Under the pieces are notes generated by a model. It was not told the DNA's origin. It searched no databases and saw nothing but the letters and a program-made list of their open reading frames with translations. Position numbers and translations under genes: made by a program. From an uncultured Candidatus Saccharibacteria bacterium (GTDB lineage Bacteria; Patescibacteriota; WWE3; CAZQFB01), in contig CAZQFB010000001.1 of assembly GCA_964592525.1 (NCBI GenBank), forward strand, positions 279,299 through 343,298: a stretch of 64,000 bases of DNA. The letters run 5' to 3'. Shown piece by piece: positions 7,422 to 50,803 of the stretch (its first letter is position 1; each line of letters starts with the position of its first letter).

Positions 7422-8229
7422 GCTAATAAAATACTTTGCTTGGAAGACTAATCAGTGGCGTCGGCGATTGTTCTTCCGTTTTTCAACAAAACCAAGCGCC
7501 TTAACAGATCATTATCACCCCAGTTTAATTACGCGCCTCCGGCGCTTTCAGAATATAAAAGCGGTAATTTTGTTAAGCCTTTTATTTTTAGGGGGTTACA
7601 TGTTAAATCAATTATTAGTGATCAACTCTATTGATTTGCAGGTTACTAATCCCGAAAAAATTCGGGTTGCACAGCTGCACAGTGAATTAAATCAGACTTA
7701 TTATGGTAAACCGCTATGGTTAATTGATCCCCAAACAATTAGTCGGGTGATTGGGCAAAATCATCCGCAAGTCTTGGGTGTGCGTGTGAGTAGTCAATAT
7801 CCTAACAAAGTAATCATTGCTGTTTCGGGGCGAAGTCCAATCTTACAATTAAAGGTGCTTGATAGTGAGGCAACGTTTTTAGTTGATGTTCAAGGATTGG
7901 TTTTAGCCCAAGAACAGCAGACCAACTTACCTGCTGTTAGTGTTTTGGGTGTGTTGCAGGTTGGTCAAATCATCAAGAATGAAGAGCTTTTATTTTTGCT
8001 TGGCTTACTGGACCAATTAAAAGGCACCTATGTTTTAGGAGAAATCACTTTTATTTCACCAACCAGTCTGCGTATGCAAGTGGACGGGATAAGTGTTTTA
8101 TATACCACTACTTTAAGTGCTGATTTGCAATGTCAACGCTTAAAAACCGTTCTTGAACATTACCACTTGAGAAATGTTACACTGAACACTATAGATTTGC
8201 GGTTCAACCGTCCTGTAGTATCTTTCTAG
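7405..8229 (+). CDS. ftsQ: cell division protein FtsQ/DivIB-like (TM + POTRA domain)
   Basis: single N-terminal TM then POTRA-like region; position between murG and ftsA; start is GTG 7405 or ATG 7414. Confidence 0.55.
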   Translation: MKIMHKLIKYFAWKTNQWRRRLFFRFSTKPSALTDHYHPSLITRLRRFQNIKAVILLSLLFLGGYMLNQLLVINSIDLQVTNPEKIRVAQLHSELNQTYYGKPLWLIDPQTISRVIGQNHPQVLGVRVSSQYPNKVIIAVSGRSPILQLKVLDSEATFLVDVQGLVLAQEQQTNLPAVSVLGVLQVGQIIKNEELLFLLGLLDQLKGTYVLGEITFISPTSLRMQVDGISVLYTTTLSADLQCQRLKTVLEHYHLRNVTLNTIDLRFNRPVVSF

Positions 8230-8278
8230 CCTGATGGAGTCGTTGCTGCTAAGATAGTGGGGTGCTAAACTAACAATA

Positions 8279-9565
8279 ATGTCAAGAGAAAGAATTATAA
8301 CTGGTATTGATATAGGCTCTTCCAAGATTACTACGGTTATAGCTAGTCAGGGAGAAGAAAAAAGGCTATCAGTGATTGGCGTAAGTACGGTCCCCTCAAG
8401 AGGTATAAAAAAGGGTGTCGTGGTAGATATTGATGATGCTGTGGAGTCTATTGCTAGTTGTTTAGAAGGGGCGGAACGAATGGCCGGTTATGCCGTTAGC
8501 AGCGCTTTTGTCAGTCTTGACGGTAATCATATTGCCTCGCAAAATTCACATGGGGTGGTTGCAGTTCATGATCAAGAAGGAGAAATTACCCCCAATGATG
8601 TCAGTAGAGTGACAGAAGCAGCTCGTGCTATTTCCCTTCCGGAGAGTCGAGAAATATTACACGTTATTCCACGAGGCTTTATCGTTGATTCTCAAGAAGG
8701 GGTTAAAGATCCAGTAGGTATGAGTGGTATTAGGTTGGAAGTTGAAACCAATATTATTTCCGGGGCATCGGCGGTCATGCGTAATCTAGCTAAATGTGTG
8801 CAACAAGTGGCAGTTGATGTGGATAGTTTTGTCTATGCGGGTATCGCATCAGCCGAGGCAACGCTATCGGACACCGAAAAAGAACTTGGTTGTGCTTTAG
8901 TTGATATTGGTGGGGGTACCACCAAAATTGTGGTTTATGTTGCTGGTTCACCGGCTTACTCGGCAGTGATACCCGTTGGTGGTCAAAACATTACTAATGA
9001 TATTGCCATTGGTCTGCGGACCAATCTAGAAGCTGCTGAAAAAATAAAAATCCGCTTGAGCGAGCTGAAGGAATATACTTATTTAGAAGAAGAGGAAGAT
9101 AGGGAAAATGATAATCCCAAAGCGGCACGCAAAAGTAGAACCCGCCAAATTGATCTAAGAGAATTGGGTTTAGATTTGGCAGCCATACCCGAATCTATTT
9201 TTTATGAAGTAATTAATCCCAGGTTAGCAGAAATATTTAAATTAGTTGGTACGGAATTGCGAAAAAGTGGCTATAGCAAAATGCTCCCATCTGGTATTAT
9301 AGTAACTGGTGGCACTGCTGAAACAGTTGGTTTAGAAGATATGGCTAAAGTAACACTACAGATGCCCTTTCGTGTTGGTAGACCAAGTGGGTTCCATGGC
9401 TTGGTAGATGAAATTCAAGGACCAGCTTTTGCGACGGTGTCTGGGTTAATTTTATACAGTGCTAATGAAATTTCCTCGCCCCGCTCTTTTGGACGGGTTT
9501 CCACTGGCGGCGCTTCAGAGTTAATGAAGAAAGCCACTGGTTGGTTTAAGTCCTTTATGCCCTAG
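8279..9565 (+). CDS. ftsA: cell division protein FtsA
   Basis: actin-fold ATPase, N-terminus [23 protein letters not shown] motif; precedes ftsZ. Confidence 0.9.
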
Positions 9566-9612
9566 AGTGTTCGTGTTATTATTTTCAGAAATCTGCCCAT
9601 GAGGCAATAATT

Positions 9613-10743
9613 ATGTTAATTAAACCTGAAATTGAGAAGGTAGCTAATATCCGGGTGGTGGGTTTAGGTGGTGGTGGTGGTAATGCCATAAATTATATGG
9701 TTGATCAAAGGCAAATCCAGGGGGTGGAGTTTATGGCCATCAATACTGATTCGCAGGCTTTAGCGGCTAATAAAGCGCAAACTAAAATACAAATTGGTCG
9801 AGAATTAACGCGTGGGTTAGGCGCTGGGGCTAATCCAGAAGTGGGTTTGAAAGCAGCCGAAGAAAGTGCTGATCAGCTTCATGATTATCTGCAGGGCAGC
9901 GATATGGTCTTTATTGCGGCGGGTATGGGTGGTGGTACGGGTACTGGTGCTGCTCCCATTGTTTCTGCGATTGCCAAAGGTTTGGGGGCTCTAACGGTTG
10001 GCGTAGTCACTAAACCTTTCCATTTTGAAGGCGCGCGGAGAATGGAGAATGCCGAGATGGGCATTGAAGAATTAAGGGATAAAGTAGACGCCTTAATTAC
10101 CATACCAAACCAAAAGTTGTTAGAAGTGGTGGAAAGAAAAGTGTCTATGTTGGAAGCCTTTAGTGTTGCTGATAGTGTTTTGGCCCATGCTGTGCAGGGT
10201 ATTTCTGATTTGATTGTCTTACCTGGTTTGGTCAATGTTGATTTTGCGGATGTGAGAACCGTGATGACCGATGCGGGCTCCGCTTTAATGGGCATGGGGG
10301 TTGGTCAAGGTGAAAATCGCGCGACGATTGCCGCTAAGCAGGCCATTTCTTCCCCGCTACTAGATATTTCGGTCAAAGGCGCTAAGGGTATTTTGTTTAA
10401 TGTCGTTGGTGGTGATGATTTGGGCATGCACGAGATTGATGAAGCAGCTAAGGTGGTCGCTGATGCCGCTGACCCTGATGCCGAGATTATTTTTGGTGCC
10501 GCTTTAGATGAGAACATGTCAGATCAGATAAAAATTACCGTCATTGCGACTGGTTTTGAAGAACATAGTTCTCTCTCCACGGGTCTTAGTGGCGTGATCA
10601 TAAGTCAAAAACCGTCCATACTTAAAGCAGAAAACATAGCCTTAAAAAAGGAAGCCAGTGAGAGTGCAAAAGAAGAAGACTCCTTTGACTTGCCGGATGA
10701 TAATGAATCTGAACTTGATATTCCCGCTTTTTTAAGACGCTAA
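9613..10743 (+). CDS. ftsZ: cell division GTPase FtsZ
   Basis: tubulin signature [25 protein letters not shown]. Confidence 0.95.
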
Positions 10744-10791: not shown

Positions 10792-11172
10792 TTATTGGTG
10801 TGTGATCTCCTCCTCCCTGAACCACACCTTTCCTTCAAGGGAGGTAACGTCTCCACCCCAGGGGTAGTGTGCTACGCCAGTCCACGGCGGTGTGGAGAAA
10901 TCAAGGACACCGATCATTGCGGCTATTCGCCCCGGGGTCCAGTAGCGCAGGAATGCCAAGCAGCTGGGGCAACTTGGTCGATGGTCATACACTAGTGCCC
11001 CCTCGTCGGTACAAACAATCTCCACTAGTTGACCACACTCGGGGCAATAGGCTCTGATCGTGAGCGACATCGCTCCTGTTTCTGGATCAGTACCATGGTC
11101 AAATCTGAAACTTGCATATGACAGGAAGTTGATCCTGACGTCATCGGTAATGAGTAGATCGTCAAGTGCCAT
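10792..11172 (-). CDS. hypothetical Cys-rich (zinc-ribbon, CPECG...CPSC) protein in a stretch with locally elevated G+C
   Basis: ATG at 11172 with GGGAGAGAAG upstream; composition clearly more GC-rich than flanks; no family recognised. Confidence 0.4.
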   Translation of the reverse strand: MALDDLLITDDVRINFLSYASFRFDHGTDPETGAMSLTIRAYCPECGQLVEIVCTDEGALVYDHRPSCPSCLAFLRYWTPGRIAAMIGVLDFSTPPWTGVAHYPWGGDVTSLEGKVWFREEEITHQ

Positions 11173-17529: not shown

Positions 17530-17602
17530 GAGCCGTTAGCTCAGTTGGTAGAGCGTCCGGGTCACATCCGGAAGGTCGTAGGTTCGAATCCTACACGGCT
17601 CA
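17530..17602 (+). tRNA. tRNA-Val (anticodon CAC)
   Basis: manual cloverleaf fold: acceptor GAGCCGT/ACGGCTC, D-arm GCTCAGTTGGTAGAGC, anticodon arm TCCGG-GTCACAT-CCGGA, T-arm GTAGGTTCGAATCCTAC; CCA not encoded. Confidence 0.75.
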
Positions 17603-17924
17603 CACAAGCGCAGGCAGCCGGGTTGGAGAGGTTTCGGTGGTTTTGCCCCGCAATAAAATAGTGCGGGATCGCCTTCCCGCCTATGGGCAGGAACCAATGA
17701 CCACAGGAGGTCAAAGTATAAGTAGTTTTCAGTAAGGCTGCTTGTTAGTTTCTTGTTCGGGGTTTGCTAAGGTGGGGGTGGGGTCGGGTGCTAATTAATA
17801 TTAAGCGCATGAATAATAAGGCTACCCACTGCTTGCAGCTGATGATATTATTTGTTTAACCCAAAATAGGGAATAATTTACTCGTGGAGAGCTAGATGGT
17901 GTTTATGGTTATTAGAGTGTATTA

Positions 17925-25623: not shown

Positions 25624-25695
25624 GCCGAGATAGCTCAGTGGTAGAGCAACCGCTTCGTAAGCGGTAGGTCGTGAGTTCAACCCTCACTCTCGGCT
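25624..25695 (+). tRNA. tRNA-Thr (anticodon CGT)
   Basis: manual fold: acceptor GCCGAGA/TCTCGGC, anticodon arm ACCGC-TTCGTAA-GCGGT, T-arm GTGAGTTCAACCCTCAC. Confidence 0.8.
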
Positions 25696-25701
25696 CATAA
25701 A

Positions 25702-26457
25702 ATGTATCCTTCTGTAGTACCAGTTTGGAAAAGAGTTGGACAATCAACTCATCAACTAGCTATTCAATTAGCATCAAAGTACCGAGTAAAAGCGGCTCAT
25801 ACTGGTATTTTAGATCCTTTAGCGGAAGGAGTGGTGGTGGTTTTGTTAGGGGAAGAACGATTTTTAAAGGCTTACTATAAGAATTCGCGCAAGGTTTACG
25901 AAACGACTCTTTTACTAGGAGTGTCCACGGATACACATGACTTGTTAGGTATGGTGACTAAGTTTTATATGCGTCAGACCACTTGTGCTGAAATAGATTT
26001 GGCCTTTCAGCGTTTTCTGGGTGAGAGCATGCAGATTCCGCCAGCTTTTTCTGCCATTTCCGTGGCGGGTAAAAGGTTATTCCAACATTACCGAGAGGGT
26101 TCTTTTGAAAAATTAAGTATTGCTCCCCGAAAAGTACGTGTTGATTCTGTAGTGGTTCATGGTCTGGAAGGGATTTCTAAAGACGAGCTGATAGCTAGAG
26201 TGCGACAAACGGTTGTTAAGGTGAGCGGAGATTTCCGACAACCCCTGATTATGGAAAAATGGGAACAGGTTTTTAAACAATTACCAGACCAATTGTCTCT
26301 AGCTCATTTGACGGTGACTACTGGTCCTGGGGTTTATATTAGGGGTTTGGTTAGAGATGCAGGTAAATATCTCCAGCTTCCTTTAGTGGTTTATGCTTTA
26401 GTCCGAACTGAAAATGCCTCTTTTGTGAAACAGGATTGTATCGAGCTTGATTATTGA
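25702..26457 (+). CDS. truB: tRNA pseudouridine(55) synthase TruB
   Basis: HTGILDPLAEGVVVVLLGEE catalytic-Asp motif. Confidence 0.8.
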   Translation: MYPSVVPVWKRVGQSTHQLAIQLASKYRVKAAHTGILDPLAEGVVVVLLGEERFLKAYYKNSRKVYETTLLLGVSTDTHDLLGMVTKFYMRQTTCAEIDLAFQRFLGESMQIPPAFSAISVAGKRLFQHYREGSFEKLSIAPRKVRVDSVVVHGLEGISKDELIARVRQTVVKVSGDFRQPLIMEKWEQVFKQLPDQLSLAHLTVTTGPGVYIRGLVRDAGKYLQLPLVVYALVRTENASFVKQDCIELDY

Positions 26458-28064
26458 GTTAATTTATTTAGACCCTGTAGAGCCTTTTGATCTTGCGGGT
26501 TAAGTTCTAATGCCTTGCGGAAGGCTGTTTTAGCTTCTTCCAGTTTTCCTGTTTGCGCTAACATAATGCCATAATTAGTTAGTAGCACAGGGTTACTGGG
26601 GTTGATAGAGATAGCGGTGGCAATGGCATTTAATGCTTGCTCCCTATCGCCCAGCTCAAAATAAACAGTTGCTAGGTTTTGGTAGGATTGCCAAAGGGAT
26701 GGTTTCAAGCGCACGGCTGCTTGGTAAAAATTGACAGCTTCCGCCCGGTTTCCTAATTGATGTAAAGTATTAGCCAAATTGTGGTAGGCTTCGGCATAGT
26801 TAGGTTGGAGTTCAATGGCCTTTCGGAATTCTTGTGCTGCTTGGGGCAGGTCGCCGTGTCGAGAATAAACATCCCCAAGGTTATTTCGGGCATTGGGACT
26901 GTTTTGAGAGACTTTGGCGGTGGCTACCCATAAAGTATCCTCATTTTGCCAATCCTGGTTTCTCACTATGGTTCTCATCAGTAAAGCTAAAATTACTATC
27001 GTAGCTAGGGTGTAGATAATCTCGTTATTGTATTTGTCCAAACCCAATTTGGTTAACCAGGCAAGAACATAAACCAAACCGATTAGAGACAAGTAGACAT
27101 ACCTTTCGGCGACAATCCAGGATACACCAAATGGGGTTAGCGTGGGGAGTAAAGCGATAATAAACCAGCTAAAGCCAAAGAAAACGTGTTTGTTCTTTTT
27201 AAAGCCCAGTATTAATGTGGTTAAGAAAGTACCAGTTATTCCCGCTAAAAGCCAAAACTGACCCCACGTAAATTTTAGTTCGGATTGATAAAGAGTTAAT
27301 TTTTGTGGCCAGATGGCTAATTTGAGGTAGGAGGAAACGGCGACGGGGATTTGCACCAGGGGGTTGGATGGCCCCGGAGGTGTAGGGCTGGTGTTAACTA
27401 AAGCTAACCTCTCATCTAGCTGCTGGTATAGCTCTAAGGATTTTAGTGCGGAGATGACAAAATAGGGAGAGATGTAGGTCCAGTGATTTTTGAGATTGCC
27501 AAAAGACATTTCCGAGACAACTATGAGTAGCGGTAAAATAATAGCCTTTTCACTGGTGGTTAAGGCTAAGATGAAAGCGATAAGTGACCAGTACCAATAT
27601 TTTCGTTGTTGGTGGTTTAAAAAGTAGCGAAACAGTAAAAAACTAAGCAACAGAAAAAAAGAGTATTGAGTATAAATGCCCCCCGATATCCAGCTAACCG
27701 ATTCGGTGAGCAGTGGATGGGTGGCATAAACCAGACTACTAATGATAGCTGGTCGTTGTCCAAACACTTCTGCTAAGAAGCTATATAGTAATAAAACAAC
27801 ACCAGTATGAAAAAAGAGGTTAATAATTCGATAATGAGCTGGAGTGGCTTCAAACAGAATAGTGACTAGATTAAAAAGTGTTGTTCGGGCAAAAAATAGG
27901 GGCCTTTCCAAGATATATTCCCAAGTTCCCAGAAGCTCGTTTTTTGCAATGGTGGGAACATCATCAGAAACATAGGCATTGTCTAGCGAAGTATAATAGC
28001 TAAGCGCTACTATTAATATTAGTAAGAGAAGGTACCAGCGGTGAGTTTCCAGAAATGCTCTCAT
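26451..28064 (-). CDS. polytopic membrane protein with C-terminal TPR repeats (PMT/GT-C-like O-glycosyltransferase candidate)
   Basis: about 10 TM N-terminal domain then 5-6 TPR units (YAEAYHNLAN..., WQSYQNLATVY...). Confidence 0.5.
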   Translation of the reverse strand: MRAFLETHRWYLLLLILIVALSYYTSLDNAYVSDDVPTIAKNELLGTWEYILERPLFFARTTLFNLVTILFEATPAHYRIINLFFHTGVVLLLYSFLAEVFGQRPAIISSLVYATHPLLTESVSWISGGIYTQYSFFLLLSFLLFRYFLNHQQRKYWYWSLIAFILALTTSEKAIILPLLIVVSEMSFGNLKNHWTYISPYFVISALKSLELYQQLDERLALVNTSPTPPGPSNPLVQIPVAVSSYLKLAIWPQKLTLYQSELKFTWGQFWLLAGITGTFLTTLILGFKKNKHVFFGFSWFIIALLPTLTPFGVSWIVAERYVYLSLIGLVYVLAWLTKLGLDKYNNEIIYTLATIVILALLMRTIVRNQDWQNEDTLWVATAKVSQNSPNARNNLGDVYSRHGDLPQAAQEFRKAIELQPNYAEAYHNLANTLHQLGNRAEAVNFYQAAVRLKPSLWQSYQNLATVYFELGDREQALNAIATAISINPSNPVLLTNYGIMLAQTGKLEEAKTAFRKALELNPQDQKALQGLNKLTQ

Positions 28065-28131
28065 GAAAATATTCTAACTTATTTCATAAATAGTAGTTGA
28101 AAAAAGGTTGGTTGTCAGGCACACTTTCAGA

Positions 28132-28731
28132 ATGGCTTTCCATTACAACCTGATTGAAATAATACAAGCGGTAGGCTATCTGGGTTTAACCTTCATTGTC
28201 TTTGCCGAGTCGGGTTTGTTTTTTGGTTTTTTCCTGCCAGGGGATAGTTTACTGTTTACAGCGGGTTTTTTGGCGTCGCAGGGTTTTTTTAGTGTTTGGT
28301 GGTTGCTAATTATCTTAATGTTGGCAGCTATTGCTGGGGATAGTACGGGTTATTGGATGGGTAAAAAGTTTGGGGGCTGGTTAATGAAGCGTCCAGACAA
28401 TTTCTTCTTTCAGAAAAAATATATTTACCAAGCCGAAAATTTCTACGCTAAACACGGCGGCAAGGCTATTGTGTTAGCGCGCTTTGTTCCCGTGGTGCGT
28501 ACCTTTGTGCCGATCGTGGCCGGTATTGCTCGTATGGAATACTCCAAATTCGTGAGCTTTAATGTTTTTGGCGGTATCTTTTGGGTCGCTTTGATGGTTT
28601 TACTGGGTTATTTTCTAGGGAATGCTATTCCGAACGTGGATAAATATTTAATTCCCATTATTGGGGTAATTATCCTTCTATCTATACTACCCGGCTTATA
28701 CCACTTTTGGTTAGAGAAGCGTAAGGCTTGA
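28132..28731 (+). CDS. DedA/SNARE-associated family membrane protein
   Basis: ARFVPVVRTFVPIVAGIARMEYSKF motif; the track's 28108 start is TTG, ATG at 28132. Confidence 0.8.
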   Translation: MAFHYNLIEIIQAVGYLGLTFIVFAESGLFFGFFLPGDSLLFTAGFLASQGFFSVWWLLIILMLAAIAGDSTGYWMGKKFGGWLMKRPDNFFFQKKYIYQAENFYAKHGGKAIVLARFVPVVRTFVPIVAGIARMEYSKFVSFNVFGGIFWVALMVLLGYFLGNAIPNVDKYLIPIIGVIILLSILPGLYHFWLEKRKA

Positions 28732-28913
28732 ATTAACAGAACATTTAATTACCCATTACCAACTACAGGTTTGTTATTGCTGTGGGTTAAGCAGCGCTTT
28801 ATTTGCTCATATTACTATTAATATGCGTTTTCACGTCCCACTTGCAATAATACTATAAGTTTGGTATATAGAAGAGTAGTTTCGCAACTGAACAATTCAG
28901 AAAGGAGTTGGAC

Positions 28914-30419
28914 ATGACAGCGGGCCTGCCCAAGCTAGCCTTTATTGTGCTAGCCGTGTTGGTGGTAGCTATTGTGCTACCGCTTGAATTGGGGGGGCAC
29001 GTTGTTTGGGCCTTCCCTCAAAGTGTGCGGGATCCGGAATGCTGGGAGGGGGTTTCCCCCACTAACCAGCAAATCGACCTACGCGTGTGTGTCTTTGACA
29101 CCTTTCAGGGGCCACCTAATGGTTCAGGTAATTGGTGGCGGGTGACAGAGCCAAGTGATCAGGTGACTGTCACGCTTGTCAGCTTTTTCCTCCAGGATTT
29201 GGTTTTGTACAATACCCTCACTTCGGAGGGTAGAGCAAGTATGGCTGGGCTGTCTGCCGGACCATACAAGCTGACCTTGGATTTCCCCAACACTTTGTTG
29301 GCTAAGTACACGTTTGATAGTGTGTACAAGCCACCAATCAGTGTTTACGGGGATGATCCAGTCGAAATCATCATTAACCACCCCGAAGAGGGAAGTGCCG
29401 TGACAGTGTGGTTGTATGCGGAAGGTAATCCCGCACCTACGGATACACCGGAAGGTGCGCCCACCGCCACAGACACACCCACGCGCACGCCCACGCCAAC
29501 GAGCACGCCAACGGCGTCTCGAACACCTACTCCCCAACCAACCTATGATGCCCCACTACAAGTGGGTCTGAATGGGCGGTTGTGGATAGAGAATCGGGAT
29601 GGAGTTCCTCCTTATGCTAGCGAGGAGCTTGACCACGAAGTGTGGCTCTATGTGGACGAGCCACCTCTGGGTGGCTCTAAGAAGTATACATGGACGGACT
29701 CAACCTTCCATGTGGGCGAGATTGTGGAAGGCGAGTGGTTCATGATCGGACTCCATGGGGTGTCGGCTTGGAATTGCGGCACCAATTGCTATGGTAAGCT
29801 CCGGTTTGAGGGGGGTCGGTGTGTGGTTGGCATTGCGGGTAATCCCAATGCCAATGACCACGATCTGTTCTACGGTGGGGGGGCGCGGTTGTGCTCCCAG
29901 GAGGCACCGGGGGTGTATGTTTTCCCCCTGACGCTCAAACCACTACCAACCCCCACGCCAACGAGGACGGCAACGGCGTCAGCCACGGCTACCAGTATCC
30001 CAACGGATACCCCGGTACCGACTGCTACGTCCCTACCGTCCGAGACTCCGGTACCGTCAAAGACGCCAACGCCATCAGCAACGTGGACGCCAGGGGGGCC
30101 AACGGCTACCCCAACCGCCACGCCTACGGTAACGTTGTTGCCTACGGATACTCCGGAGCCCACCGTCACCTTCCCGCCAGCAACTCCGGCGGGTATGGAG
30201 GTAACGGTTGGTGCTGGGTTATCTAGGAGAGTACCGCCGATGGTGGTGGCGGATGCTCTCGCCAACCCAGACGGTCAGCACGGCTGGGGTAGACTTTGCC
30301 AGCCGGGGGTTCCGCCCAGCCCTTTCAACACCGTGAGATCGGTGTTGTGTCTGCAAAACATGGGAAAACCCTACCATCCCATGTTCAACCCGCTCGTTTG
30401 GAAATGCGGGTGTCCCTAG
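28914..30419 (+). CDS. secreted hypothetical protein with two globular domains joined by Pro/Thr-rich (TPTPT) linkers; gene is strongly GC-enriched
   Basis: AAAGGAG RBS-like then ATG 28914; signal-peptide-like N-terminus; low-complexity PT linkers; G+C visibly far above flanks. Confidence 0.55.
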   Translation: MTAGLPKLAFIVLAVLVVAIVLPLELGGHVVWAFPQSVRDPECWEGVSPTNQQIDLRVCVFDTFQGPPNGSGNWWRVTEPSDQVTVTLVSFFLQDLVLYNTLTSEGRASMAGLSAGPYKLTLDFPNTLLAKYTFDSVYKPPISVYGDDPVEIIINHPEEGSAVTVWLYAEGNPAPTDTPEGAPTATDTPTRTPTPTSTPTASRTPTPQPTYDAPLQVGLNGRLWIENRDGVPPYASEELDHEVWLYVDEPPLGGSKKYTWTDSTFHVGEIVEGEWFMIGLHGVSAWNCGTNCYGKLRFEGGRCVVGIAGNPNANDHDLFYGGGARLCSQEAPGVYVFPLTLKPLPTPTPTRTATASATATSIPTDTPVPTATSLPSETPVPSKTPTPSATWTPGGPTATPTATPTVTLLPTDTPEPTVTFPPATPAGMEVTVGAGLSRRVPPMVVADALANPDGQHGWGRLCQPGVPPSPFNTVRSVLCLQNMGKPYHPMFNPLVWKCGCP

Positions 30420-30439
30420 GAAATAGGGAATCGCCAGAG

Positions 30440-30484
30440 CCCCCTTCCGAGAAGTTTTCGGGAGGGGGTTTTTCTGTTTTATTT
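30440..30484 (+). terminator. rho-independent terminator (GC-rich 11-bp stem CCCCCTTCCGA/TCGGGAGGGGG then T-tract)
   Basis: hairpin read directly, followed by TTTTTCTGTTTTATTT. Confidence 0.65.
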
Positions 30485-30533
30485 GATAATTTGTATCAGT
30501 TGATATAAAAAGATTGTCAGTGGGAGGAAAATA

Positions 30534-33131
30534 ATGAACCCAGAAAACTTTACCGAAAAAACAACTCAAGCTATCAATAACGCTTCTGAAAGCGCTTTAG
30601 CAAACAAAAACTCTATCATCGAAGTAGAGCATCTGATGCTGTCTCTTCTAGAGCAAGCGGATACAGCTGTTGTTCCAATGCTGCAAGCACTTTCTGTGGA
30701 TATTGATGGTTTTAAGGCAGACTTGCTAAGTGCTGTAGAAAGGTTCGCTAAGGTTGAAGATCTTAAACTTGAGCAGTTGCGGGTTTCTGCGGAATTAAGA
30801 AATGTTTTAACTAACGCCCAGAAGCAAGCAGCTAAGTTGGGTGATGACTATATCAGCACGGAGCATCTCCTGTTGGCGCTGGTAGCAGAAGGTGGTTCGG
30901 TGGCTACTCTTTTAAGTAAATATGGTGTAACTAGAGATAATTTAAGTGATAACATAGCTTCCGTGAGAGGTAACATGCACGTGCAAGATCGCAATCCCGA
31001 AAGTAAATATAACGTTTTAGAAAAATATGGCCAAAACCTCACTGTCTTGGCTCGTGAGGGCAAATTAGACCCGGTTATTGGTCGGGATGAGGAAGTACGT
31101 CGGGTAATGCAGGTTTTATCCCGCCGGACCAAGAATAACCCGGTCCTGATCGGTGAGCCGGGAGTAGGTAAAACCGCTATCGTGGAAGGTTTAGCACAAA
31201 GGATTATAGCTGGGGATGTTCCGGGTAGCCTAAAAAATAAAGATATTGTTTCTTTGCAGATTGGTTCACTTCTGGCGGGAGCCAAATTTAGAGGTGAATT
31301 TGAAGACCGTTTAAAGTCGGTTTTGAAAGAGGTAGAAGAAAGTGACGGTAAAATACTTCTCTTTGTTGATGAAATGCATACCATTGTGGGTGCGGGCGCT
31401 GCCGAAGGTGCGGTGGATGCAGCTAACATGTTAAAACCATTACTCGCTCGCGGTAAATTGCACATGATCGGAGCCACCACTCTAGATGAGTATCGGAAAC
31501 ATGTAGAGAAAGATGCCGCTCTGGAGAGACGCTTTCAGCCTGTTTTTGTAGGCGAACCCAGTATTGAGGACTCTATAGCAATATTACGTGGTTTAAAAGA
31601 GCGCTACGAGCTTCATCATGGCGTAAAAATAACCGATCCCGCTCTTGTTGCCGCAGTAGAATTATCTTCTCGTTATATTGCTGATCGGTTCCTGCCCGAT
31701 AAAGCGATTGATCTGATTGATGAAGCGACCTCATCTTTGAAGATGGAGATTGATAGTATGCCGGTAGAGCTTGATCGGATCAAACGTAAAATGCGTCGTT
31801 TAGAGGTGGACAAGCAGGCTTTGAAAAAGGAGAAAGACAAAGCTTCTAAGGAACGCTTACAGGAAATTGAGCAAGAGTTGGCTGATTTAGGAGAAAAATC
31901 TTCGGCTATGGAAAAGCAGTGGGAGAATGAAAAAGGTTTAATTCAGAAGAGTCAGGATCTTTCCGAGAAAGTAGACGAGCTAAAATTTGCTGAGGAACAA
32001 GCGGAGAGGGAAGGGGATTTTGAGAAAGCGGCTCAAATAAAACATGGCGATATTCCAAAACTGGAGCAAGAGATTGCTAAGGTTAAAGAAGCCTTAAATA
32101 AACTTGAGGTTAGTACTCGTTTATTAAGGGAGGAAGTGACCGAAGAAGATGTGGCTATGGTAGTAGCTCGTTGGACGGGAATTCCGGTGACCCGCTTGTT
32201 AGCCACAGAACAAGACAAATTGGTACATCTAGAGGCTGAATTAGGTCAAAGGGTTGTCGGTCAGGAAGAGGCAGTAGCGGCAGTTTCCCGCGCGGTCAGA
32301 CGCTCACGTGCCGGCATCGCTGCTAGTAATAAACCCTTAGGCAGCTTTATTTTCCTGGGACCTACGGGAGTTGGTAAAACAGAGCTTGCCAGAGCCTTAG
32401 CGGAGTTTTTGTTTAACGATGAAGAGGCTATGGTTCGGATTGATATGAGCGAATACGCGGAGAAGCATACGGTCGCTCGTTTGATTGGCGCTCCTCCGGG
32501 TTATATTGGTTATGATGAGGGCGGGCAGTTGACGGAAGCGGTCAGGAGAAGACCTTACACCGTGGTCTTATTTGATGAAATTGAAAAAGCAAACCCCGAT
32601 ATTTTTAATGTCTTACTGCAAGTTTTAGAGGATGGTCGTTTAACTGATGGTAAGGGGCGTACAGTGGATTTCCGCAACACCATTATTATTATGACCTCTA
32701 ATCTAGCTAGTGAATTAATTCAACAGTGGTCTTCTTCTGCGCAAGAAGCAACCGAGAAAAAACGTCATGACGAGGTAATGTCTGAAGTGAAAGCGCACTT
32801 TCGTCCAGAGTTTCTTAATCGGGTGGATCGGGTAATTATTTTTAAGCGTTTAAGTCGGGAGCAAATGCGCCAAATCGTGGATATCCAATTAGTAAATTTG
32901 ACAAAATTGCTTGCCACAAGACATTTAACACTAGAAGTTAGTGACCAAGCCAAAGAGCAATTAGCGCAGGATGGTTATGATGCGGTGTTTGGGGCACGTC
33001 CTTTAAGACGATTAATTGAAGAAAAAATTATAGATGAGCTCTCGCTTAAAGTAATTGAGGGCGAAATCAAGGAGCAAGATACGGTCAAAGTGACTATTGA
33101 TCAACACGGTAATTATCTTGTCAAGCGTTAA
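30534..33131 (+). CDS. clpB: ATP-dependent chaperone/disaggregase ClpB
   Basis: two AAA+ modules ([13 protein letters not shown]; [14 protein letters not shown]), long coiled-coil middle domain, N-domain; 865 aa. Confidence 0.9.
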
Positions 33132-33262
33132 ATAAATTGGTTTCCTGGCATGATCTTTTAGACAGCAAATGACGTTGTTTCGTTTCGGTGGTGGTTTGTT
33201 GAGCAGCGGATGGATATGAACGGCAACCTTCTGCTTTCCTACCTGCACTGCTAAGCTTTCTG

Positions 33263-33333
33263 AGCGGAATACGGGAGTTGAACCCGTCTCTCTACCTTGG
33301 GAAGGTAGTGTTGAACCGCTCAACTAATTCCGC
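33263..33333 (-). tRNA. tRNA-Gly (anticodon CCC)
   Basis: manual fold on minus strand: GCGGAAT-TA-GTTGAGCGGTTCAAC-A-CTACC-TTCCCAA-GGTAG-AGAG-ACGGGTTCAACTCCCGT-ATTCCGC-T. Confidence 0.65.
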
Positions 33334-33499: not shown

Positions 33500-33940
33500 T
33501 TATTGCCGCTGGTACAGACCGACCAAGACGGTTTCTGCCAGCACCCTATTTTTTATTTCTTTCTCTAACTCGTTTAAACTAGCTCCTGTATTCAGAGTAA
33601 GCATAGCATCTAAGGCGAATAATTTAAAAATATAACGGTGCTTTCCGGAAGGTGGGCAGGGTCCACCATAACCAGTCGTGCCAAAGTCTGTTTCACCAGC
33701 AACGGCACCTTCTGGAGTAGTATCTGGTGGTATTTGGGTGGTTGCGGGGTTGATGTTCCACAGCGTCCAGTGTAACCAAGTTTTAGCTGGAGCATCCGGG
33801 TCCTCCACGATTAACACCAGACTTTTAGCTTCCTTAGGGATATTTGAGAAAGTGAGCGGTGGGTTGATATTTTCACCATCACAAGTGTATTTGGCTGGGA
33901 TAGTGGTGTTGTTCTCAAAGGCAGCACTGCTGATGGTCAT
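33500..33940 (-). CDS. ybhB: YbhB/YbcL-family phosphatidylethanolamine-binding protein (PEBP)
   Basis: DPDAP...WLHW...NI and GPCPPSGKHRYIFKLFALD signature. Confidence 0.85.
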   Translation of the reverse strand: MTISSAAFENNTTIPAKYTCDGENINPPLTFSNIPKEAKSLVLIVEDPDAPAKTWLHWTLWNINPATTQIPPDTTPEGAVAGETDFGTTGYGGPCPPSGKHRYIFKLFALDAMLTLNTGASLNELEKEIKNRVLAETVLVGLYQRQ

Positions 33941-44227: not shown

Positions 44228-45214
44228 ATGTTTCGGAAGGAAGTCACTATGGTTATTTGCCAAAGATGTAACAAAAGACCAGCCAGAATACAAAGTCAGC
44301 AAATTGGGGCTGATGGACGACCAATTTTTGTTAATTTGTGTGAGGAATGTTTTGCCCAGATCCAGAATCAGCACAACAAGTCTTCTTTACTGGATAAATT
44401 TGGTCGGGATTTAACCAAGATGGCTGCGGACGGGTTATTGGACCCAGTCATCGGGCGAGCGGAGGAGATAGAGAGAGTTATTCATATCTTGTCTCGGCGC
44501 ACAAAAAACAACCCAGTTTTGGTAGGTGATCCGGGAGTTGGTAAAACGGCTATTGTTGAAGGTTTAGCGCAACGAATAGTAGAGGGGCAGATCATAGAAA
44601 CTCTACAAGGAAAAAGGATAATTGCGATTGATATACCTCTCATGTTGGCGGGTGCTGCGCACCGAGGCGAATTTGAACAGCGTTTGAAAAAAACCATTGA
44701 TGAAGTGATCAGATCCAAGGGACAGATAATATTGTTTATTGATGAAGTCCATTTGATTGTTGGTGCTGGTGCGGCTCAAGGGGCGATTGATGCTGCAAAT
44801 ATGTTGAAGCCTTCATTGGCAAGAGGAGAGGTGCAAACGATAGGTGCTACCACTTTAGATGAGTATCGCCAAGTAATTGAGAGAGATGGGGCTTTGGAGA
44901 GACGTTTTCAACCTGTATTTGTAGCTGAACCCACGGTGGCAGAAACTATAGACATTCTGCATGGGCTAAAAAGAAAATATGAAGAACATCACCAAGTGAT
45001 TATTGAACGGGGAGCGATTGAAGCCGCTTCAATTTTGTCCGAGCGGTATATTGTGGACCGTTTTTTACCGGACAAGGCAGTTGACCTTTTAGATGAGGCT
45101 TCTTCGGCTGTGAGATTACGAACCATTAGGGAGCCAGAAACATTGCGACAAATCAACACGGAAATTAAATATCTTGAGAGCGAGCTTAATCGGTTTAACA
45201 AAGAAAATTTATGA
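44228..45214 (+). CDS. ClpC/ClpE-type AAA+ ATPase, N-terminal part (zinc finger + nucleotide-binding domain 1 + start of middle domain)
   Basis: CQRCNKRP...CEECF zinc ribbon, Walker [14 protein letters not shown], ends inside coiled middle domain; stop overlaps next ATG. Confidence 0.75.
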
Positions 45215-46362
45215 CTACCACCAAACAAAAATTAAGTGTACTCCAAATTCAGAAAAGATTGTTGGATCTTTATAGAGTGAAAGGGGAATTATCTGAATTA
45301 TGGCAGCGCACCAAGTTGGAAGAGGTTCCTACGGTTACTAGACAAGACATTGCTACGGTAGTTTCTAAAATGACGGGTATTCCACTCAATGACTTAACCG
45401 AAGAAGAAAAAGAAAAGCTGCTGCATATTGAGGAAAGAATACACCAGCGTATTGTGGGGCAAGATCATGCTGTGGCGGTAGTTAGTGCCGCGATTCGTCG
45501 GTCTAGAGCGGGCTTAAAGGAAAGGAACAGACCGATTGGCTCTTTCTTGTTTTTGGGACCAACGGGGGTGGGTAAAAGTGAATTATCTAAAACCTTAGCT
45601 GAAGTTCTGTATGGTAGTGAAGATATGCTCGTTCGTCTTGATATGAGTGAGTTCATGGAGAAACATACAGTTTCGCGATTAATTGGCGCTCCTCCAGGAT
45701 ATGTTGGTTTTGATGAGGGGGGTCAATTAACCGAGATAATCAGACGACGACCTTTCAGTGTTATTTTATTTGATGAGATAGAGAAAGCTCATCCGGAAGT
45801 TTTTAATATCTTATTACAGATTATGGAAGATGGACGCTTGACTGATGGTCAAGGTAGGATGGTTGATTTCAAAAACGCTATTTTAGTGATGACCTCTAAT
45901 TTGGGTTCGCAGATAATATATCAGGATACGTTAGGATTTAATCCCCAGGGTAGTGTAACCGATATTTGGTCGGATTTTGAGGAACTAAAAGGGAGAGTGA
46001 TGAGTTCCTTGAAAAATGAATTTAGACCGGAGTTTGTTAACCGTATCGATGAAGTCGTCGTGTTCAAGTCACTTACTAGGGAAGATATCTCTAAAATCAC
46101 AGAGCTGGAATTGGGAAGGTTAGTTAGTTATCTTGCTGATGAGCAAATAAAATTAACGTACACGCCTAAGGTAGTTGCTCACTTAGTGGAAAAAGGTTAT
46201 GATCCGCAGTACGGAGCTAGACCGATAAAGCGCTTGCTTCAACAAGTGGTTGAAAATCCTCTAAGTGATGAGATAATTCGAGGATCTTTCAAACCAAAAG
46301 ATAAAGTTTTACTAGGAACAAGACTTGGCAACTTAACTATTAAAAAATCAAAAAGATCATGA
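45211..46362 (+). CDS. ClpC/ClpE-type AAA+ ATPase, C-terminal part (rest of middle domain + nucleotide-binding domain 2 + C-domain)
   Basis: [20 protein letters not shown] Walker A, sensor/Arg-finger region, ClpB_D2-small tail. Confidence 0.75.
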
Positions 46363-48265: not shown

Positions 48266-50803
48266 CTAATCGTGATCTTTAACCCAGCGGATGGCTTCAT
48301 TGGGGTCTAAAATATAAGTCCACCAATCCCTTGTAAAATCGGTTGCTCTGCCGTTGGTGAGGTAAATATTAGCAGTACCACTTTGGCTAGGTAGAGATCC
48401 CAACCAGAAGAGCTGCCAGCCTTCATCGCTGCAACCCCAAGCAGTGCAATTAATTGGTGTCGCTTTGCCAGTGTAATTGGGAAACTCTTGCCATTTCTGG
48501 CAAGCGCTTGGTCTGGTGGTATCGTTGTTGTAATTATAATGTGTTACAGCATTATGCGGAAAATGAACATTACCGCAGTATTCAGAGGTGGGTGGGTTGT
48601 TAGCATTCTTGGGTTCATAGTAGCGGTCAATGACGGCAAAATCTAACCAATGGCGTTGTATTTCCGAACCTTTCCAGTAAGCAGTAAAATAGTTTATGAC
48701 TGATTCTACTCGGTGTCCGTACATATGTAGACTAGCATCGGGTCGCCAGGTAGTACCCATCACGATTATTTGTTTTTGACATTCTGGCACGATAAAGGTA
48801 GGACCATTTACCCAAAATCCGGTAGTAGGACCAACCATAAAACTTTCATAGGCTAAAACGTAATCTGGACTTAACATCCAGATTTCATCAGCGTTTACTT
48901 TGGCAGCTTCTTCACAGATACTGCTCTCTTGGAAAAATTTAACATAATCAACTTTCCATTTGTTCTCTTCACACCAATCGGGCACTGGATTGCCGGTGAG
49001 GGGATTCAAACAAGGTAAAAATCCATTACTACTATAGCGAGGTCCGCTTTTCATGGGTGGGAAGGTGGTGATATTTTGATAACCAGCTATTTGGTAATTA
49101 ACTACACCTTCAGTAGCTTTATTTAAGGCATCGGCTTTAGTTTTAGCCGAATTTACGGCAGCTTGATGCAAACTGACTCCGTTAGCTAGAGTTGATAGGT
49201 ACTCGCTGTAAATAGTACCGCTATCCAATGGAGGATCTACGGTGACCAAAAGCAGGTTGACGGTGTGCTGATTTTCTGGCGTACCAACATCGGGAAGAGC
49301 TGTATTGGGAGGAGGGTTGTCTGGTTTTTCCACAATAGGGGGTGGGTTATAGGTGGGGATTTGGTCCAAACCGAGGAGATCCAGTCTAGCAGCACCGCCG
49401 GTTTGGCCGTAATCTACCTTGAGGTTATAGGTACCACTGCTTGGTAGCTTAAGGGTTACTTTATGGCTACCATAGCCTAGTTTAGAGGTGACGGCGAGGT
49501 CATTTAACCAGATTTGTGCCCAGTCATCCACGAACAGGGTAAGGTTGTAGGTGCCTTGGGTGAGAGCTAGGGAGTTAGTAAAGAGAGCAGAGAACCTTTG
49601 CCTGTCAACGTCTGTGGGGTAGGGGGTTTCATTCCCAAATCTAAGTTTGAGGTCTCGGTTAGTATCACTGAACCCGTCGTTGTAATCAGCTATGGTTGAG
49701 CTAAGATTGCCGGTAGCGTTGTAAAACTTAGCTTCCCACTTGGCAGTGGGAGCAACCGCTGGTTTTTCCACAATAGGTGGTGGGTTATAGGTGGGGATTT
49801 GGTCCAAACCGAGCAGGTCCAGTCTAGCAGCACCGCCGGTTTGGCCGTAATCTACCTTGAGGTTATAGGTACCACTGCTTGGTAGCTTAAGGGTTACTTT
49901 ATGGCTACCATAGCCTAGTTTAGAGGTGACGGCGAGGTCATTTAACCAGATTTGTGCCCAGTCATCCACGAACAGGGTAAGGTTGTAGGTGCCTTGGGTG
50001 AGAGCTAGGGAGTTAGTAAAGAGAGCAGAGAACCTTTGCCTGTCAACGTCTGTGGGGTAGGGGGTTTCATTCCCAAATCTAAGTTTGAGGTCTCGGTTAG
50101 TATCACTGAACCCGTCGTTGTAATCAGCTATGGTTGAGCTAAGATTGCCGGTAGCGTTGTAAAACTTAGCTTCCCACTTGGCAGTGGGAGCAACCGCTGG
50201 TTTTTCCACAATAGGTGGTGGACTGGTTTCCTGCGCTGGTGGGGGAGAAAGTAATATGCTATCTAGTCCCAACAATTTCAGCTGTGGTTGTCCGCCTATT
50301 CGGAGGTAGTTTATAGCTAGGGAATATTCCCCAGTTTGGGGTATGTTTAAAGTTACATCTTGCCAAGATTTTTTCAGGTACTGATCATTAATTAACTTGT
50401 CATTTAGGTACAAGCCGGCTGAATCATCGGCGTACATTTTGAGCAAATAAGTGCCTTGGGGTAGTGTCAGTTTAGTGTTAAAAGTTACCTTGAAGTTGAT
50501 GTATTTTAATCCTATAGGATAAGACACTCGTTTGCCCCAAGTAATGTCTAAATCATTGATCGTTTCGTCATTGCTATCGTAAATATTTTTGGTGGAAACG
50601 CCGGCGTATTTTCCATTAGCGAGATAATAAGTAGCTTGCCAGGGGCTAGGCAACGATTTAGCACTGGAGAAGTAATTTTGTCTGACTTTGTTGCTACCGA
50701 CAGTTACAACTAAAGCAAGCAGTAGCAATAAATATTTTGTGTTTTGGGTAAATTTTATGTATTTAAAATATTTTTTATATTTACGGACAGCTTTATACAC
50801 CAT
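48266..50803 (-). CDS. large secreted protein with three PA14-like domains (two identical copies) and a C-terminal Cys-containing domain of unknown function
   Basis: signal-anchor N-terminus; repeated GTYNLTLFVDDWAQIWLNDLAV... modules; 146-aa block present twice verbatim. Confidence 0.7.
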   Translation of the reverse strand: MVYKAVRKYKKYFKYIKFTQNTKYLLLLLALVVTVGSNKVRQNYFSSAKSLPSPWQATYYLANGKYAGVSTKNIYDSNDETINDLDITWGKRVSYPIGLKYINFKVTFNTKLTLPQGTYLLKMYADDSAGLYLNDKLINDQYLKKSWQDVTLNIPQTGEYSLAINYLRIGGQPQLKLLGLDSILLSPPPAQETSPPPIVEKPAVAPTAKWEAKFYNATGNLSSTIADYNDGFSDTNRDLKLRFGNETPYPTDVDRQRFSALFTNSLALTQGTYNLTLFVDDWAQIWLNDLAVTSKLGYGSHKVTLKLPSSGTYNLKVDYGQTGGAARLDLLGLDQIPTYNPPPIVEKPAVAPTAKWEAKFYNATGNLSSTIADYNDGFSDTNRDLKLRFGNETPYPTDVDRQRFSALFTNSLALTQGTYNLTLFVDDWAQIWLNDLAVTSKLGYGSHKVTLKLPSSGTYNLKVDYGQTGGAARLDLLGLDQIPTYNPPPIVEKPDNPPPNTALPDVGTPENQHTVNLLLVTVDPPLDSGTIYSEYLSTLANGVSLHQAAVNSAKTKADALNKATEGVVNYQIAGYQNITTFPPMKSGPRYSSNGFLPCLNPLTGNPVPDWCEENKWKVDYVKFFQESSICEEAAKVNADEIWMLSPDYVLAYESFMVGPTTGFWVNGPTFIVPECQKQIIVMGTTWRPDASLHMYGHRVESVINYFTAYWKGSEIQRHWLDFAVIDRYYEPKNANNPPTSEYCGNVHFPHNAVTHYNYNNDTTRPSACQKWQEFPNYTGKATPINCTAWGCSDEGWQLFWLGSLPSQSGTANIYLTNGRATDFTRDWWTYILDPNEAIRWVKDHD
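49320..50195. repeat. near-perfect tandem duplication of a 438-bp unit (2 copies, a third partial start at 50196) inside the PA14-like gene
   Basis: GCTGGTTTTTCCACAATAGGTGGTGGGTTATAGGTGGGGATTTGGTCC... recurs at about 49320 and 49758, partial at 50196. Confidence 0.85.

Follow-up and report, generated by a model that had tools for sequence, protein, structure and literature searches.

Why should a conspicuously GC-rich gene sit between two housekeeping genes of a bacterium whose DNA is otherwise much poorer in G+C, and where did it come from? The question is raised by the open reading frame (ORF) at 28914-30419 (+) of a 64,000-nucleotide stretch (hereinafter the window) of contig CAZQFB010000001.1, from an uncultured Candidatus Saccharibacteria bacterium, in which it occupies the slot between dedA and clpB. 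A first-pass annotation, made from the letters alone, had taken it for an orphan gene, recently acquired, for a secreted protein of family-less domains. We find that it is a real gene with foreign-looking composition and codon usage, whose 501-residue product (P0001; the exact protein is on record) ends in a C-terminal domain (CTD) that, as judged from sequence comparisons, constitutes a previously undescribed family without a counterpart in Pfam, NCBIfam or PDB. On balance, we favor the view that the gene is an old import from high-GC bacteria, which predates the split of this lineage from that of a relative with an ortholog in the same slot and which has been kept as a secreted or surface protein.

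Composition and integrity of the GC-rich gene

The ORF has a GC content of 57.4% (58/54/60% at codon positions 1/2/3) as compared to 41.7% in the remaining window and 42.1% in the whole of it. In a sliding-window comparison with the other 1506-nt windows, none of which goes above 47.8%, this corresponds to a z of +8, bearing out the by-eye impression of the first-pass annotation that the ORF is far more GC-rich than its flanks. The borders are sharp, with the GC content going up at ~28900 and down at ~30450. GC content at third codon positions (GC3) is 0.60 as compared to 0.38 ± 0.045 in 50 other ORFs of the window, and is 0.59 in the signal peptide, 0.56 and 0.61 in the two non-linker regions D1 and D2, 0.54 and 0.62 in the linkers and 0.64 in the CTD. 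As it is raised in every segment, we rejected Pro/Thr (and also Ala/Gly) codons as the source of the GC excess. The tetranucleotide correlation of the ORF with the remaining window (0.374) is the lowest of 200 windows (others 0.679 ± 0.077), and its dinucleotide delta* is 124 versus 66 ± 27, ranking 11th of 199. ACG accounts for 47% of its Thr codons; the share is 18% for host genes and 43% for the GC-rich genes with the CTD that are discussed below. Other large surface proteins of the window show a host-like GC3 of 0.31-0.43, namely a putative surface protein of 845 aa with a PA14 domain (48266-50803, -; GC3 0.43) and a putative surface-located subtilase of 1359 aa with an SBBP repeat (59912-63991, +; GC3 0.31). 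Thus, surface proteins of this genome are not GC-rich in general.

A composition step alone would also fit a chimeric assembly, a GC-rich contaminant or a spurious ORF. However, a Logan contig from an independent assembly of SRR11845623 is 100% identical to window positions 28621-30676, running from the end of the DedA gene across the ORF into clpB. As both GC junctions are thereby reproduced, the GC island is not a chimera. Moreover, the same arrangement recurs in a second genome, and the ORF ends in a domain matching a family hidden Markov model (HMM) at E 3e-34. An artefact is hence vanishingly improbable.

Architecture of P0001 and the CTD family

P0001 begins with a signal-peptide-like segment (aa 1-32, 28914-29009), recognized by inspection from K7, a hydrophobic core at 9-23 and the boundary VWA/F, with a helix at 5-21 in the AlphaFold2 (AF2) model; a cleaved peptide and a signal anchor would both be compatible with it. 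Then follow, on the same (+) strand, the beta-rich region D1 (aa 33-172, 29010-29429), a first linker rich in Pro/Thr (aa 173-209, 29430-29540), the all-beta domain D2 (aa 210-346, 29541-29951), a second linker rich in Pro/Thr/Ala (aa 347-428, 29952-30197), both linkers being delimited by inspection, and the CTD (aa 429-501, 30198-30416). By inspection, the first-pass annotation is thus borne out as to a signal-peptide-like N-terminus, two non-linker regions, TPTPT-type linkers and a Cys-containing tail. A 32-nt direct repeat, 91% identical between its copies at 29487-29518 and 29949-29980, encodes TPTPTSTPTAS in the first linker and TPTPTRTATAS in the second, which suggests, at the sequence level, an intragenic duplication or recombination between the linkers.

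The whole protein has no match in Pfam or NCBIfam at E<=10, its PHROGs matches lie in the linkers only, and a full-length word-index search recovered P0001 itself and low-complexity matches, all in the linkers except for P0003, which also has the CTD. D1, D2 and CTD, joined without the linkers, served as the query of an exhaustive HMMER search of 1.84 billion representatives of clusters formed at 50% identity; statements below on listed hits refer to the best 150 of the 398 hits. D1 has no detectable relative, being without a match among the listed hits of this search, in Pfam or in NCBIfam, and without an alignment to the D1 of P0052, the ortholog described in the next section; its AF2 predicted local distance difference test (pLDDT) score is below 30. 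D2 is modeled entirely as strands (pLDDT 55-77), and none of its Foldseek matches in PDB, to adhesin, lectin and FN3 domains, reaches significance (best E 6e-3, target-normalised TM <= 0.40). Structure modeling thus met with divided success: the CTD is predicted confidently (pLDDT 93.9), whereas the full-length model is poor (pLDDT 39) and its PDB matches are not significant. We also considered D1 and D2 as internal duplicates and found this unsupported, the best E being 0.12 (D2 of P0001 against D1 of P0052).

At least 398 cluster representatives at E<=1e-3, and 99 at E<=1e-10, match P0001 via the CTD, so that neither "orphan" nor "family-less" describes the gene, which also has a full-architecture homolog in P0052. 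Apart from P0001 itself, 149 of the 149 listed hits (phmmer E-values 8e-23 to 1e-9) match in the final ~65-70 residues, and of 161 domain matches 138 stop precisely at the end of the protein. The family consensus reads xxxVCxxxxxRVPxAVIxxALANPxxxxGWGxxCNPxxPPSPxNxxRxxLxLxNxxxPYHPLFNxLVxKCGCP; P0001 matches model positions 4-73 over aa 432-501, through its last residue, in the form ...RVP..V..ALANP...GWG..C.P..PPSP.N..R..L.L.N...PYHP.FN.LV.KCGCP-end. Its CTD holds four Cys (C31, C48, C67 and C69), the protein terminating in ...KCGCP. Across the family, Cys31 and Cys67 covary perfectly, with both in 90 and neither in 60 of 150 CTDs, and Cys69 is near-invariant with alternative partners. This covariation points to disulfides and, hence, to an extracytoplasmic location of the CTD. 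The AF2 model, built from a 56-sequence alignment, comprises two short helices and short irregular disulfide-pinned strands. With this model Foldseek returned 0 hits in PDB and nothing significant in BFVD; a PDB sequence-profile search with the CTD gave no match, nor did a comparison of the 56 CTDs with Pfam and NCBIfam at E<=1. A word-index search found nothing with the CTD alone and 4 matches with the 56-sequence alignment. Neither a tblastn search of plasmids with one CTD nor a scan of viral contigs detected the domain, and the CTD motif strings retrieved nothing from the searchable literature.

The CTD is borne by varied proteins: among 79 full-length members, 18 contain Kelch and 9 VWA domains, and further passengers are SBBP, beta-lactamase, SdrD_B, LVIVD, cyclase, LamG, FG-GAP and PA14. 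The N-terminus is hydrophobic in 66 of the 79, and in about half of them a Pro/Thr/Ser/Ala-rich stretch precedes the CTD. Diverse extracellular passengers combined with a C-terminal position are what one would expect if the domain serves in targeting, retention or binding; accordingly, the CTD has the appearance of a new module for targeting or binding at the C-terminus of extracellular proteins in high-GC bacteria. In this it resembles the CTD of the type IX secretion system (T9SS), dockerin, SLH, LPXTG and PEP-CTERM, as it is short, conserved and C-terminal on unrelated extracellular passengers, in proteins with a signal peptide and often a low-complexity linker ahead of the domain. However, it differs from them in that no Pfam or NCBIfam model matches it, its predicted fold is distinct from the T9SS beta-sandwich and the dockerin EF-hand pair, the C-terminal tail of P0001 shows no transmembrane helix, hydrophobic helix or sortase/exosortase motif, and no partner gene conserved near CTD genes was found at the loci read. 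Carbohydrate-binding modules (CBMs) offer a second comparison: in CBM2, CBM10 and CBM5/12 a Pro/Thr linker is combined with a small disulfide-bonded module in secreted glycoside hydrolases of actinobacteria and other organisms. P0001 likewise has Pro/Thr-rich linkers between its modules and a CTD of ~70 aa with disulfides and conserved aromatics (W, Y, H, F), a layout suggestive of a binding module. Yet, the CTD has no sequence or fold match to any CBM and P0001 has no catalytic domain; by this analogy one might at most speculate that the CTD binds a ligand.

Besides the window and the contig with its ortholog, both from the Candidate Phyla Radiation (CPR), five CTD loci have readable DNA, with GC contents of 70.5% (L083), 68.2% (L094), 67.6% (L095), 70.3% (L099) and 62.8% (L100); L101 (62.6%), assembled from a sister run, nearly duplicates the L100 contig. 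In L094, L095, L099 and L100, the loci where this was computed, the GC content of the CTD gene equals that of its flanks, and the amino-acid composition of CTD proteins is of the GC type (median G+A+R+P 0.37, F+Y+M+I+N+K 0.145). For the CTD, transfer from high-GC bacteria to the CPR lineage is thus the simplest reading. The first-pass annotation had found the linkers reminiscent of secreted proteins of Actinobacteria or Chloroflexi; what the loci tell of the putative donors is their GC content of 63-70%. L083 encodes a two-subunit glycyl-tRNA synthetase (glyQ/glyS), which we take, as a lead and not as a test, to argue against Actinobacteria for this contig; Rfam models detected no lineage-specific RNA on the GC-rich CTD loci. 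On three of these contigs the CTD gene has, at a distance of no more than a few kb, a gene for a giant VWA-domain protein of 609 to at least 1361 aa (L094:1-5905, L095:1-1108 and L099:151-3669), which could reflect a conserved neighborhood or merely related organisms. On L083, a contig of 602 kb, a short ORF with the CTD is called separately behind each of two tandem Kelch genes (7288-8577 and 9024-10312); these pairs are probably frameshifted single Kelch-CTD genes.

An ortholog in a relative and the age of the gene

The ortholog P0052 (461 aa), on contig L082 from run ERR7850084, has the architecture of P0001 and lies in the same dedA-clpB slot. The window and L082 share the gene order DUF2079, Big/Glucodextran_B, tRNA-Thr(CGU), TruB, PMT_2-TPR, DedA, P0001 or P0052, and ClpB, with protein identities of 75% for DedA, 69% for ClpB, 52% for TruB, 47% for PMT and 44% for Big. 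P0001 and P0052 are 36% identical over D2, linker and CTD (D2 on its own: BLASTP E 8e-14, 37% identity), and the N-terminus of P0052 is equivalent to that of P0001, ending TFA/T. D2 is found in these two proteins only among the 150 listed hits, and they alone among 150 CTDs have the set C31/C48/C67/C69 without the usual upstream Cys (C2). The P0052 gene is itself GC-rich, with 63.1% GC and a GC3 of 0.74 (0.67-0.79 in every segment) between flanks of 39-49% GC.

The intergenic region upstream is barely alignable between the window and L082, its sole well-conserved part being a promoter-like block, TTGCAAT...ACTATAAGTTTGGTATA, at 28842-28870 (+). It consists of TTGCAA (28842-28847), a 17-nt spacer and TGg-TATATA (28862-28870), the last of these being the -10-like motif TGGTATATA already remarked on in the first-pass annotation. 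The counterpart at L082:6506-6534 has TTGCAA, 17 nt and TATAAG, and the block as a whole (TTGCAA/17-nt spacer/TGgTATA(T/A)) is identical at 27 of ~30 positions. A consensus promoter scan made no call at 28842-28870, as the -10 hexamer lacks the final T; from the conservation, nevertheless, we infer that the block is the phylogenetic footprint of a putative promoter of host type. The Shine-Dalgarno sequence AAAGGAG, also seen at first pass, lies 6 nt upstream of the ATG at 28914 (28901-28907, +), and the L082 copy has AAAGGAGG ahead of its ATG. Downstream of the stop codon, a GC-rich hairpin (30438-30470) with T-runs next to it fits a Rho-independent terminator (30438-30478, +): its arms, CCCCCTTCCGA (30440-30450) and TCGGGAGGGGG (30458-30468), precede a T-run and its fold has a dG of -31.6 kcal/mol (z = -3.3 versus shuffles), in line with the GC-rich terminator annotated at first. 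The L082 copy has its own GC-rich hairpin past the stop codon, with a sequence unrelated to that of the window.

A positional ortholog and a conserved promoter block in a diverged relative indicate that the gene already occupied the slot when the two lineages diverged. This bears directly on the proposal of the first-pass annotation, a recent acquisition from a GC-rich donor that has not yet ameliorated. The sharp GC step at the ORF borders, a codon usage resembling that of donors and a tetranucleotide signature that deviates more than any other in the window would all suit it, as would the fact that P0001 is a singleton cluster at 90% identity. However, every other protein of the window that was examined is a singleton too, and this status is therefore uninformative. 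The relative largely refutes recency: an ortholog with the same architecture and a conserved promoter-like block stands in the same slot of a genome whose ClpB is 69% identical, the two copies are only 36% identical with saturated synonymous divergence, and no close GC-rich homolog of D1 or D2 appears among the listed hits from the 1.84 billion representatives. We therefore consider a recent arrival very unlikely. At least in the only syntenic relative found, the gene is conserved at this position. A horizontal origin as such keeps the support of the foreign composition and of the CTD relatives on contigs of 63-70% GC; GC-rich relatives of D1 and D2 are lacking among the listed hits.

The history that we favor may be set out as follows. 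The gene would encode a Sec-exported modular protein with a signal peptide, D1, a Pro/Thr linker, a beta-sandwich-like D2, a long Pro/Thr linker and a disulfide-stabilized CTD. The CTD, and probably the whole gene, would have come from high-GC bacteria, in which many extracellular proteins share this tail, and would have arrived before this Patescibacteria (CPR) lineage and that of L082 parted, with vertical inheritance in the dedA-clpB slot thereafter. Transcription would start from the conserved AT-rich promoter of host type and end at the gene's own hairpin terminator. The protein would have evolved fast (36% identity versus 69-75% for the flanking genes), and its gene would have kept its GC-richness mainly as G-ending codons, by slow strand-asymmetric amelioration or by selection.

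Several observations weigh against an old import followed by vertical descent. L082 is the only syntenic relative found; the ClpB loci of 80 genomes and 10 metagenomic DedA loci showed neither the CTD nor a GC island, and, being distant and without the dedA-clpB synteny, are uninformative on absence of the gene. No flanking repeats or mobility signatures were found around the ORF, whose neighbors are housekeeping genes. GC-rich organisms offer no homolog of D1 or D2 among the listed hits and, hence, no candidate donor of the whole gene. In a CTD tree P0001 and P0052 are sisters in only 1 of 200 bootstraps, although with 70 columns and a star-like shape it has little power. Furthermore, at fourfold-degenerate sites of identical residues only 32 of 105 third positions agree between the two genes, where composition alone predicts 0.295; the synonymous sites thus look saturated, and yet they are 60% GC in the window gene and 75% in the L082 gene. 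Under an F81 amelioration model with one acquisition and subsequent decay to the fourfold composition of each host (41% and 49% GC), an identity of 0.39-0.47 is predicted for an ancestral fourfold GC of 0.95-0.85 (binomial P 0.046 to 0.0003). A single neutral decay after one acquisition is thereby disfavored, within the limits of a crude model and of an apparent identity that is depressed by misalignment of the linkers. The persistent GC-richness of both copies in the face of saturation thus calls for an explanation.

One way to account for it is recurrent or independent capture, in which an ancestral promoter stayed in the slot and the coding region, or the CTD and linkers, was replaced in each lineage from GC-rich neighbors or hosts, keeping the GC content high. 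Consistent with this, the CTDs of P0001 and P0052 are not mutual nearest relatives, that of P0001 being nearer to those of GC-type proteins; the GC3 of the L082 copy is level with some GC-rich family members (0.73-0.74); and the single-acquisition model fits poorly. Such replacement from GC-rich DNA has to contend with the D2 domain and the rare C48 cysteine pattern, common to the two CPR copies only, with the absence of a GC-rich D2 homolog, both among the listed hits, and with the lack of any recombination or mobility signature, so that, given the slight power of the tree, we hold it to be rather improbable.

The distribution of bases at fourfold sites opens another route. The window gene has C at 0.22 and G at 0.37 of these sites, and the L082 gene C at 0.27 and G at 0.50, as compared to 0.19 and 0.22 in the host genes of the window and 0.25 and 0.25 in those of L082. 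In both CPR copies, therefore, the GC excess sits in G-ending codons only and C is at the host level; ACG makes up 47-50% of their Thr codons. GC-rich family members, in contrast, show C at 0.35-0.54 and G at 0.27-0.40, with C exceeding G in 5 of 6 genes. This pattern fits strand-asymmetric decay, in which the coding, leading strand loses C more quickly than G through C-to-T changes, a reading that draws on the uniformly positive GC skew across the window. It also fits selection for G-ending (NNG) codons, as indicated by the ACG share and by the tRNA-Thr(CGU) located ~3 kb upstream at both loci. That tRNA, which reads ACG only, lies at 25624-25696 (+) in the window and at L082:2974-3047 (-), on the opposite strand; tRNA-Gly(CCC) at 33262-33333 and tRNA-Val(CAC) at 17530-17603 likewise read G-ending codons enriched in the GC-rich gene.

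Taken further, selection on G-ending codons, mRNA structure or the translation pace of a Pro/Thr-rich exported protein might keep the GC content high in a native CPR gene, in which at most the CTD would be foreign. The retention of GC-richness in both lineages, the restriction of the excess to G-ending codons, unlike in the GC-rich family genes, the retained tRNA-Thr(CGU), the native and conserved putative promoter, and the occurrence of D1 and D2 in these two genomes only, among the listed hits, all speak for such a gene. Against it, no other gene of the window is alike, the remaining large surface proteins being host-like in GC3; the CTD family is otherwise found in genomes of 63-70% GC at the loci read; and there is no known mechanism that selects for 57-63% GC in one gene. 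We consider a native gene unlikely.

Further properties of the protein may be surmised. The export of P0001 is suggested by its N-terminus, and the CTD may serve as a surface-retention or ligand-binding module, with the linkers as extended spacers. These might be O-glycosylated, given a PMT_2-TPR transferase conserved two genes upstream. This membrane glycosyltransferase (protein O-mannosyltransferase-like PMT_2 plus TPR; 26451-28064, -), whose synteny is kept in L082 with 47% identity, could glycosylate the Pro/Thr linkers. In that case P0001 would serve as a binding factor, secreted or at the cell surface, a natural role in an episymbiotic CPR bacterium. A bolder and decidedly improbable version has the episymbiont capture the surface-anchor domain with which its high-GC host equips its own extracellular proteins and display it at the tip of long Pro/Thr spacers as a host-binding "grappling hook"; the composition rich in G-ending codons, rather than being a fading trace of history, would be actively maintained in two long-diverged lineages by selection or by repeated conversion with host DNA.

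The surrounding locus and the significance of the gene

The ORF is embedded in an ordinary chromosomal region. Upstream lie the genes for TruB (25702-26457, +), the PMT_2-TPR glycosyltransferase and a DedA/VTT protein (28108-28731, +), and downstream those for ClpB (30534-33131, +) and a PEBP protein (33500-33940, -), all recognized by Pfam, which thereby confirms the placement between dedA and clpB given by the first-pass annotation; the window also encodes FtsA, FtsZ, a class I tRNA synthetase, PolA and an amidase. The nearest tRNAs are ~3 kb from the ORF on each side. The best ClpB matches in a set of 185,579 species genomes reach only 59-64% identity and come mostly from CPR/Patescibacteria metagenome-assembled genomes (MAGs), of the Patescibacteria group, Saccharibacteria, Paceibacterota and Campbellbacteria; on the strength of such protein matches, the host is probably a barely sampled Patescibacteria lineage.

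Two further features deserve mention. A second, smaller GC island is formed by a 126-aa ORF at 10792-11172 (-), between ftsZ and a beta-lactamase-like gene, with a GC content of 53% and a GC3 of 0.56; its 100-nt windows range from 0.45 to 0.59 GC and its flanks from 0.37 to 0.44. The predicted protein has CPECG...CPSC zinc-ribbon-like motifs and a Pfam zf-ChsH2 match under the cutoff (E 9e-4), and an identical protein occurs in the same context in Logan contigs of SRR11845623, SRR11845624 and SRR11845625. Elsewhere, a 328-aa ORF with AAA and AAA_lid_9 domains, like Clp NBD1 (44228-45214, +), is directly followed by an overlapping ORF of 383 aa (45211-46362, +); together they may represent a split or second Clp-type ATPase besides ClpB.

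Compositional islets left by horizontal gene transfer, and their amelioration, are described by the model of Lawrence and Ochman. The gene resembles such islets in its atypical GC content, GC3, codon usage and oligonucleotide signature, in its sharp borders and in having its relatives otherwise in distant GC-rich genomes, the last for the CTD only. It differs in that the island is a single gene without mobility genes or repeats, in that an ortholog exists in a relative at ~70% ClpB identity, and in that both copies remain remote from the composition of their hosts, contrary to the amelioration model. In Patescibacteria MAGs, islands and transferred genes have been reported by the hundred, with the remark that old transfers mostly go undetected as their GC and tetranucleotide content adapts to the recipient (PMC12455944). 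Set beside these, a plain call of a foreign gene is ordinary, and it is the undescribed CTD family and the persistent GC-richness that are of interest.

Host recognition by Patescibacteria is largely unknown. A preprint describes type IV pili as a host-attachment factor in episymbiotic Saccharibacteria (bioRxiv 10.1101/2024.11.25.624915), and P0001, as a putative exported surface protein of a CPR genome, could similarly mediate host contact; however, it is unrelated to these pili in sequence and kind, and for it a role in attachment is only conjectural. If our reading is correct, the CTD, with at least 398 clusters and a confident predicted fold, would be a new C-terminal module for extracellular proteins of high-GC bacteria, and its presence in two Patescibacteria genomes would make it a concrete candidate for a surface factor acquired across phyla. 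Likewise, a gene that stands 15-20 GC points over its genome in two lineages with saturated synonymous sites would provide a clean natural test of amelioration, strand-asymmetric mutation and codon selection.

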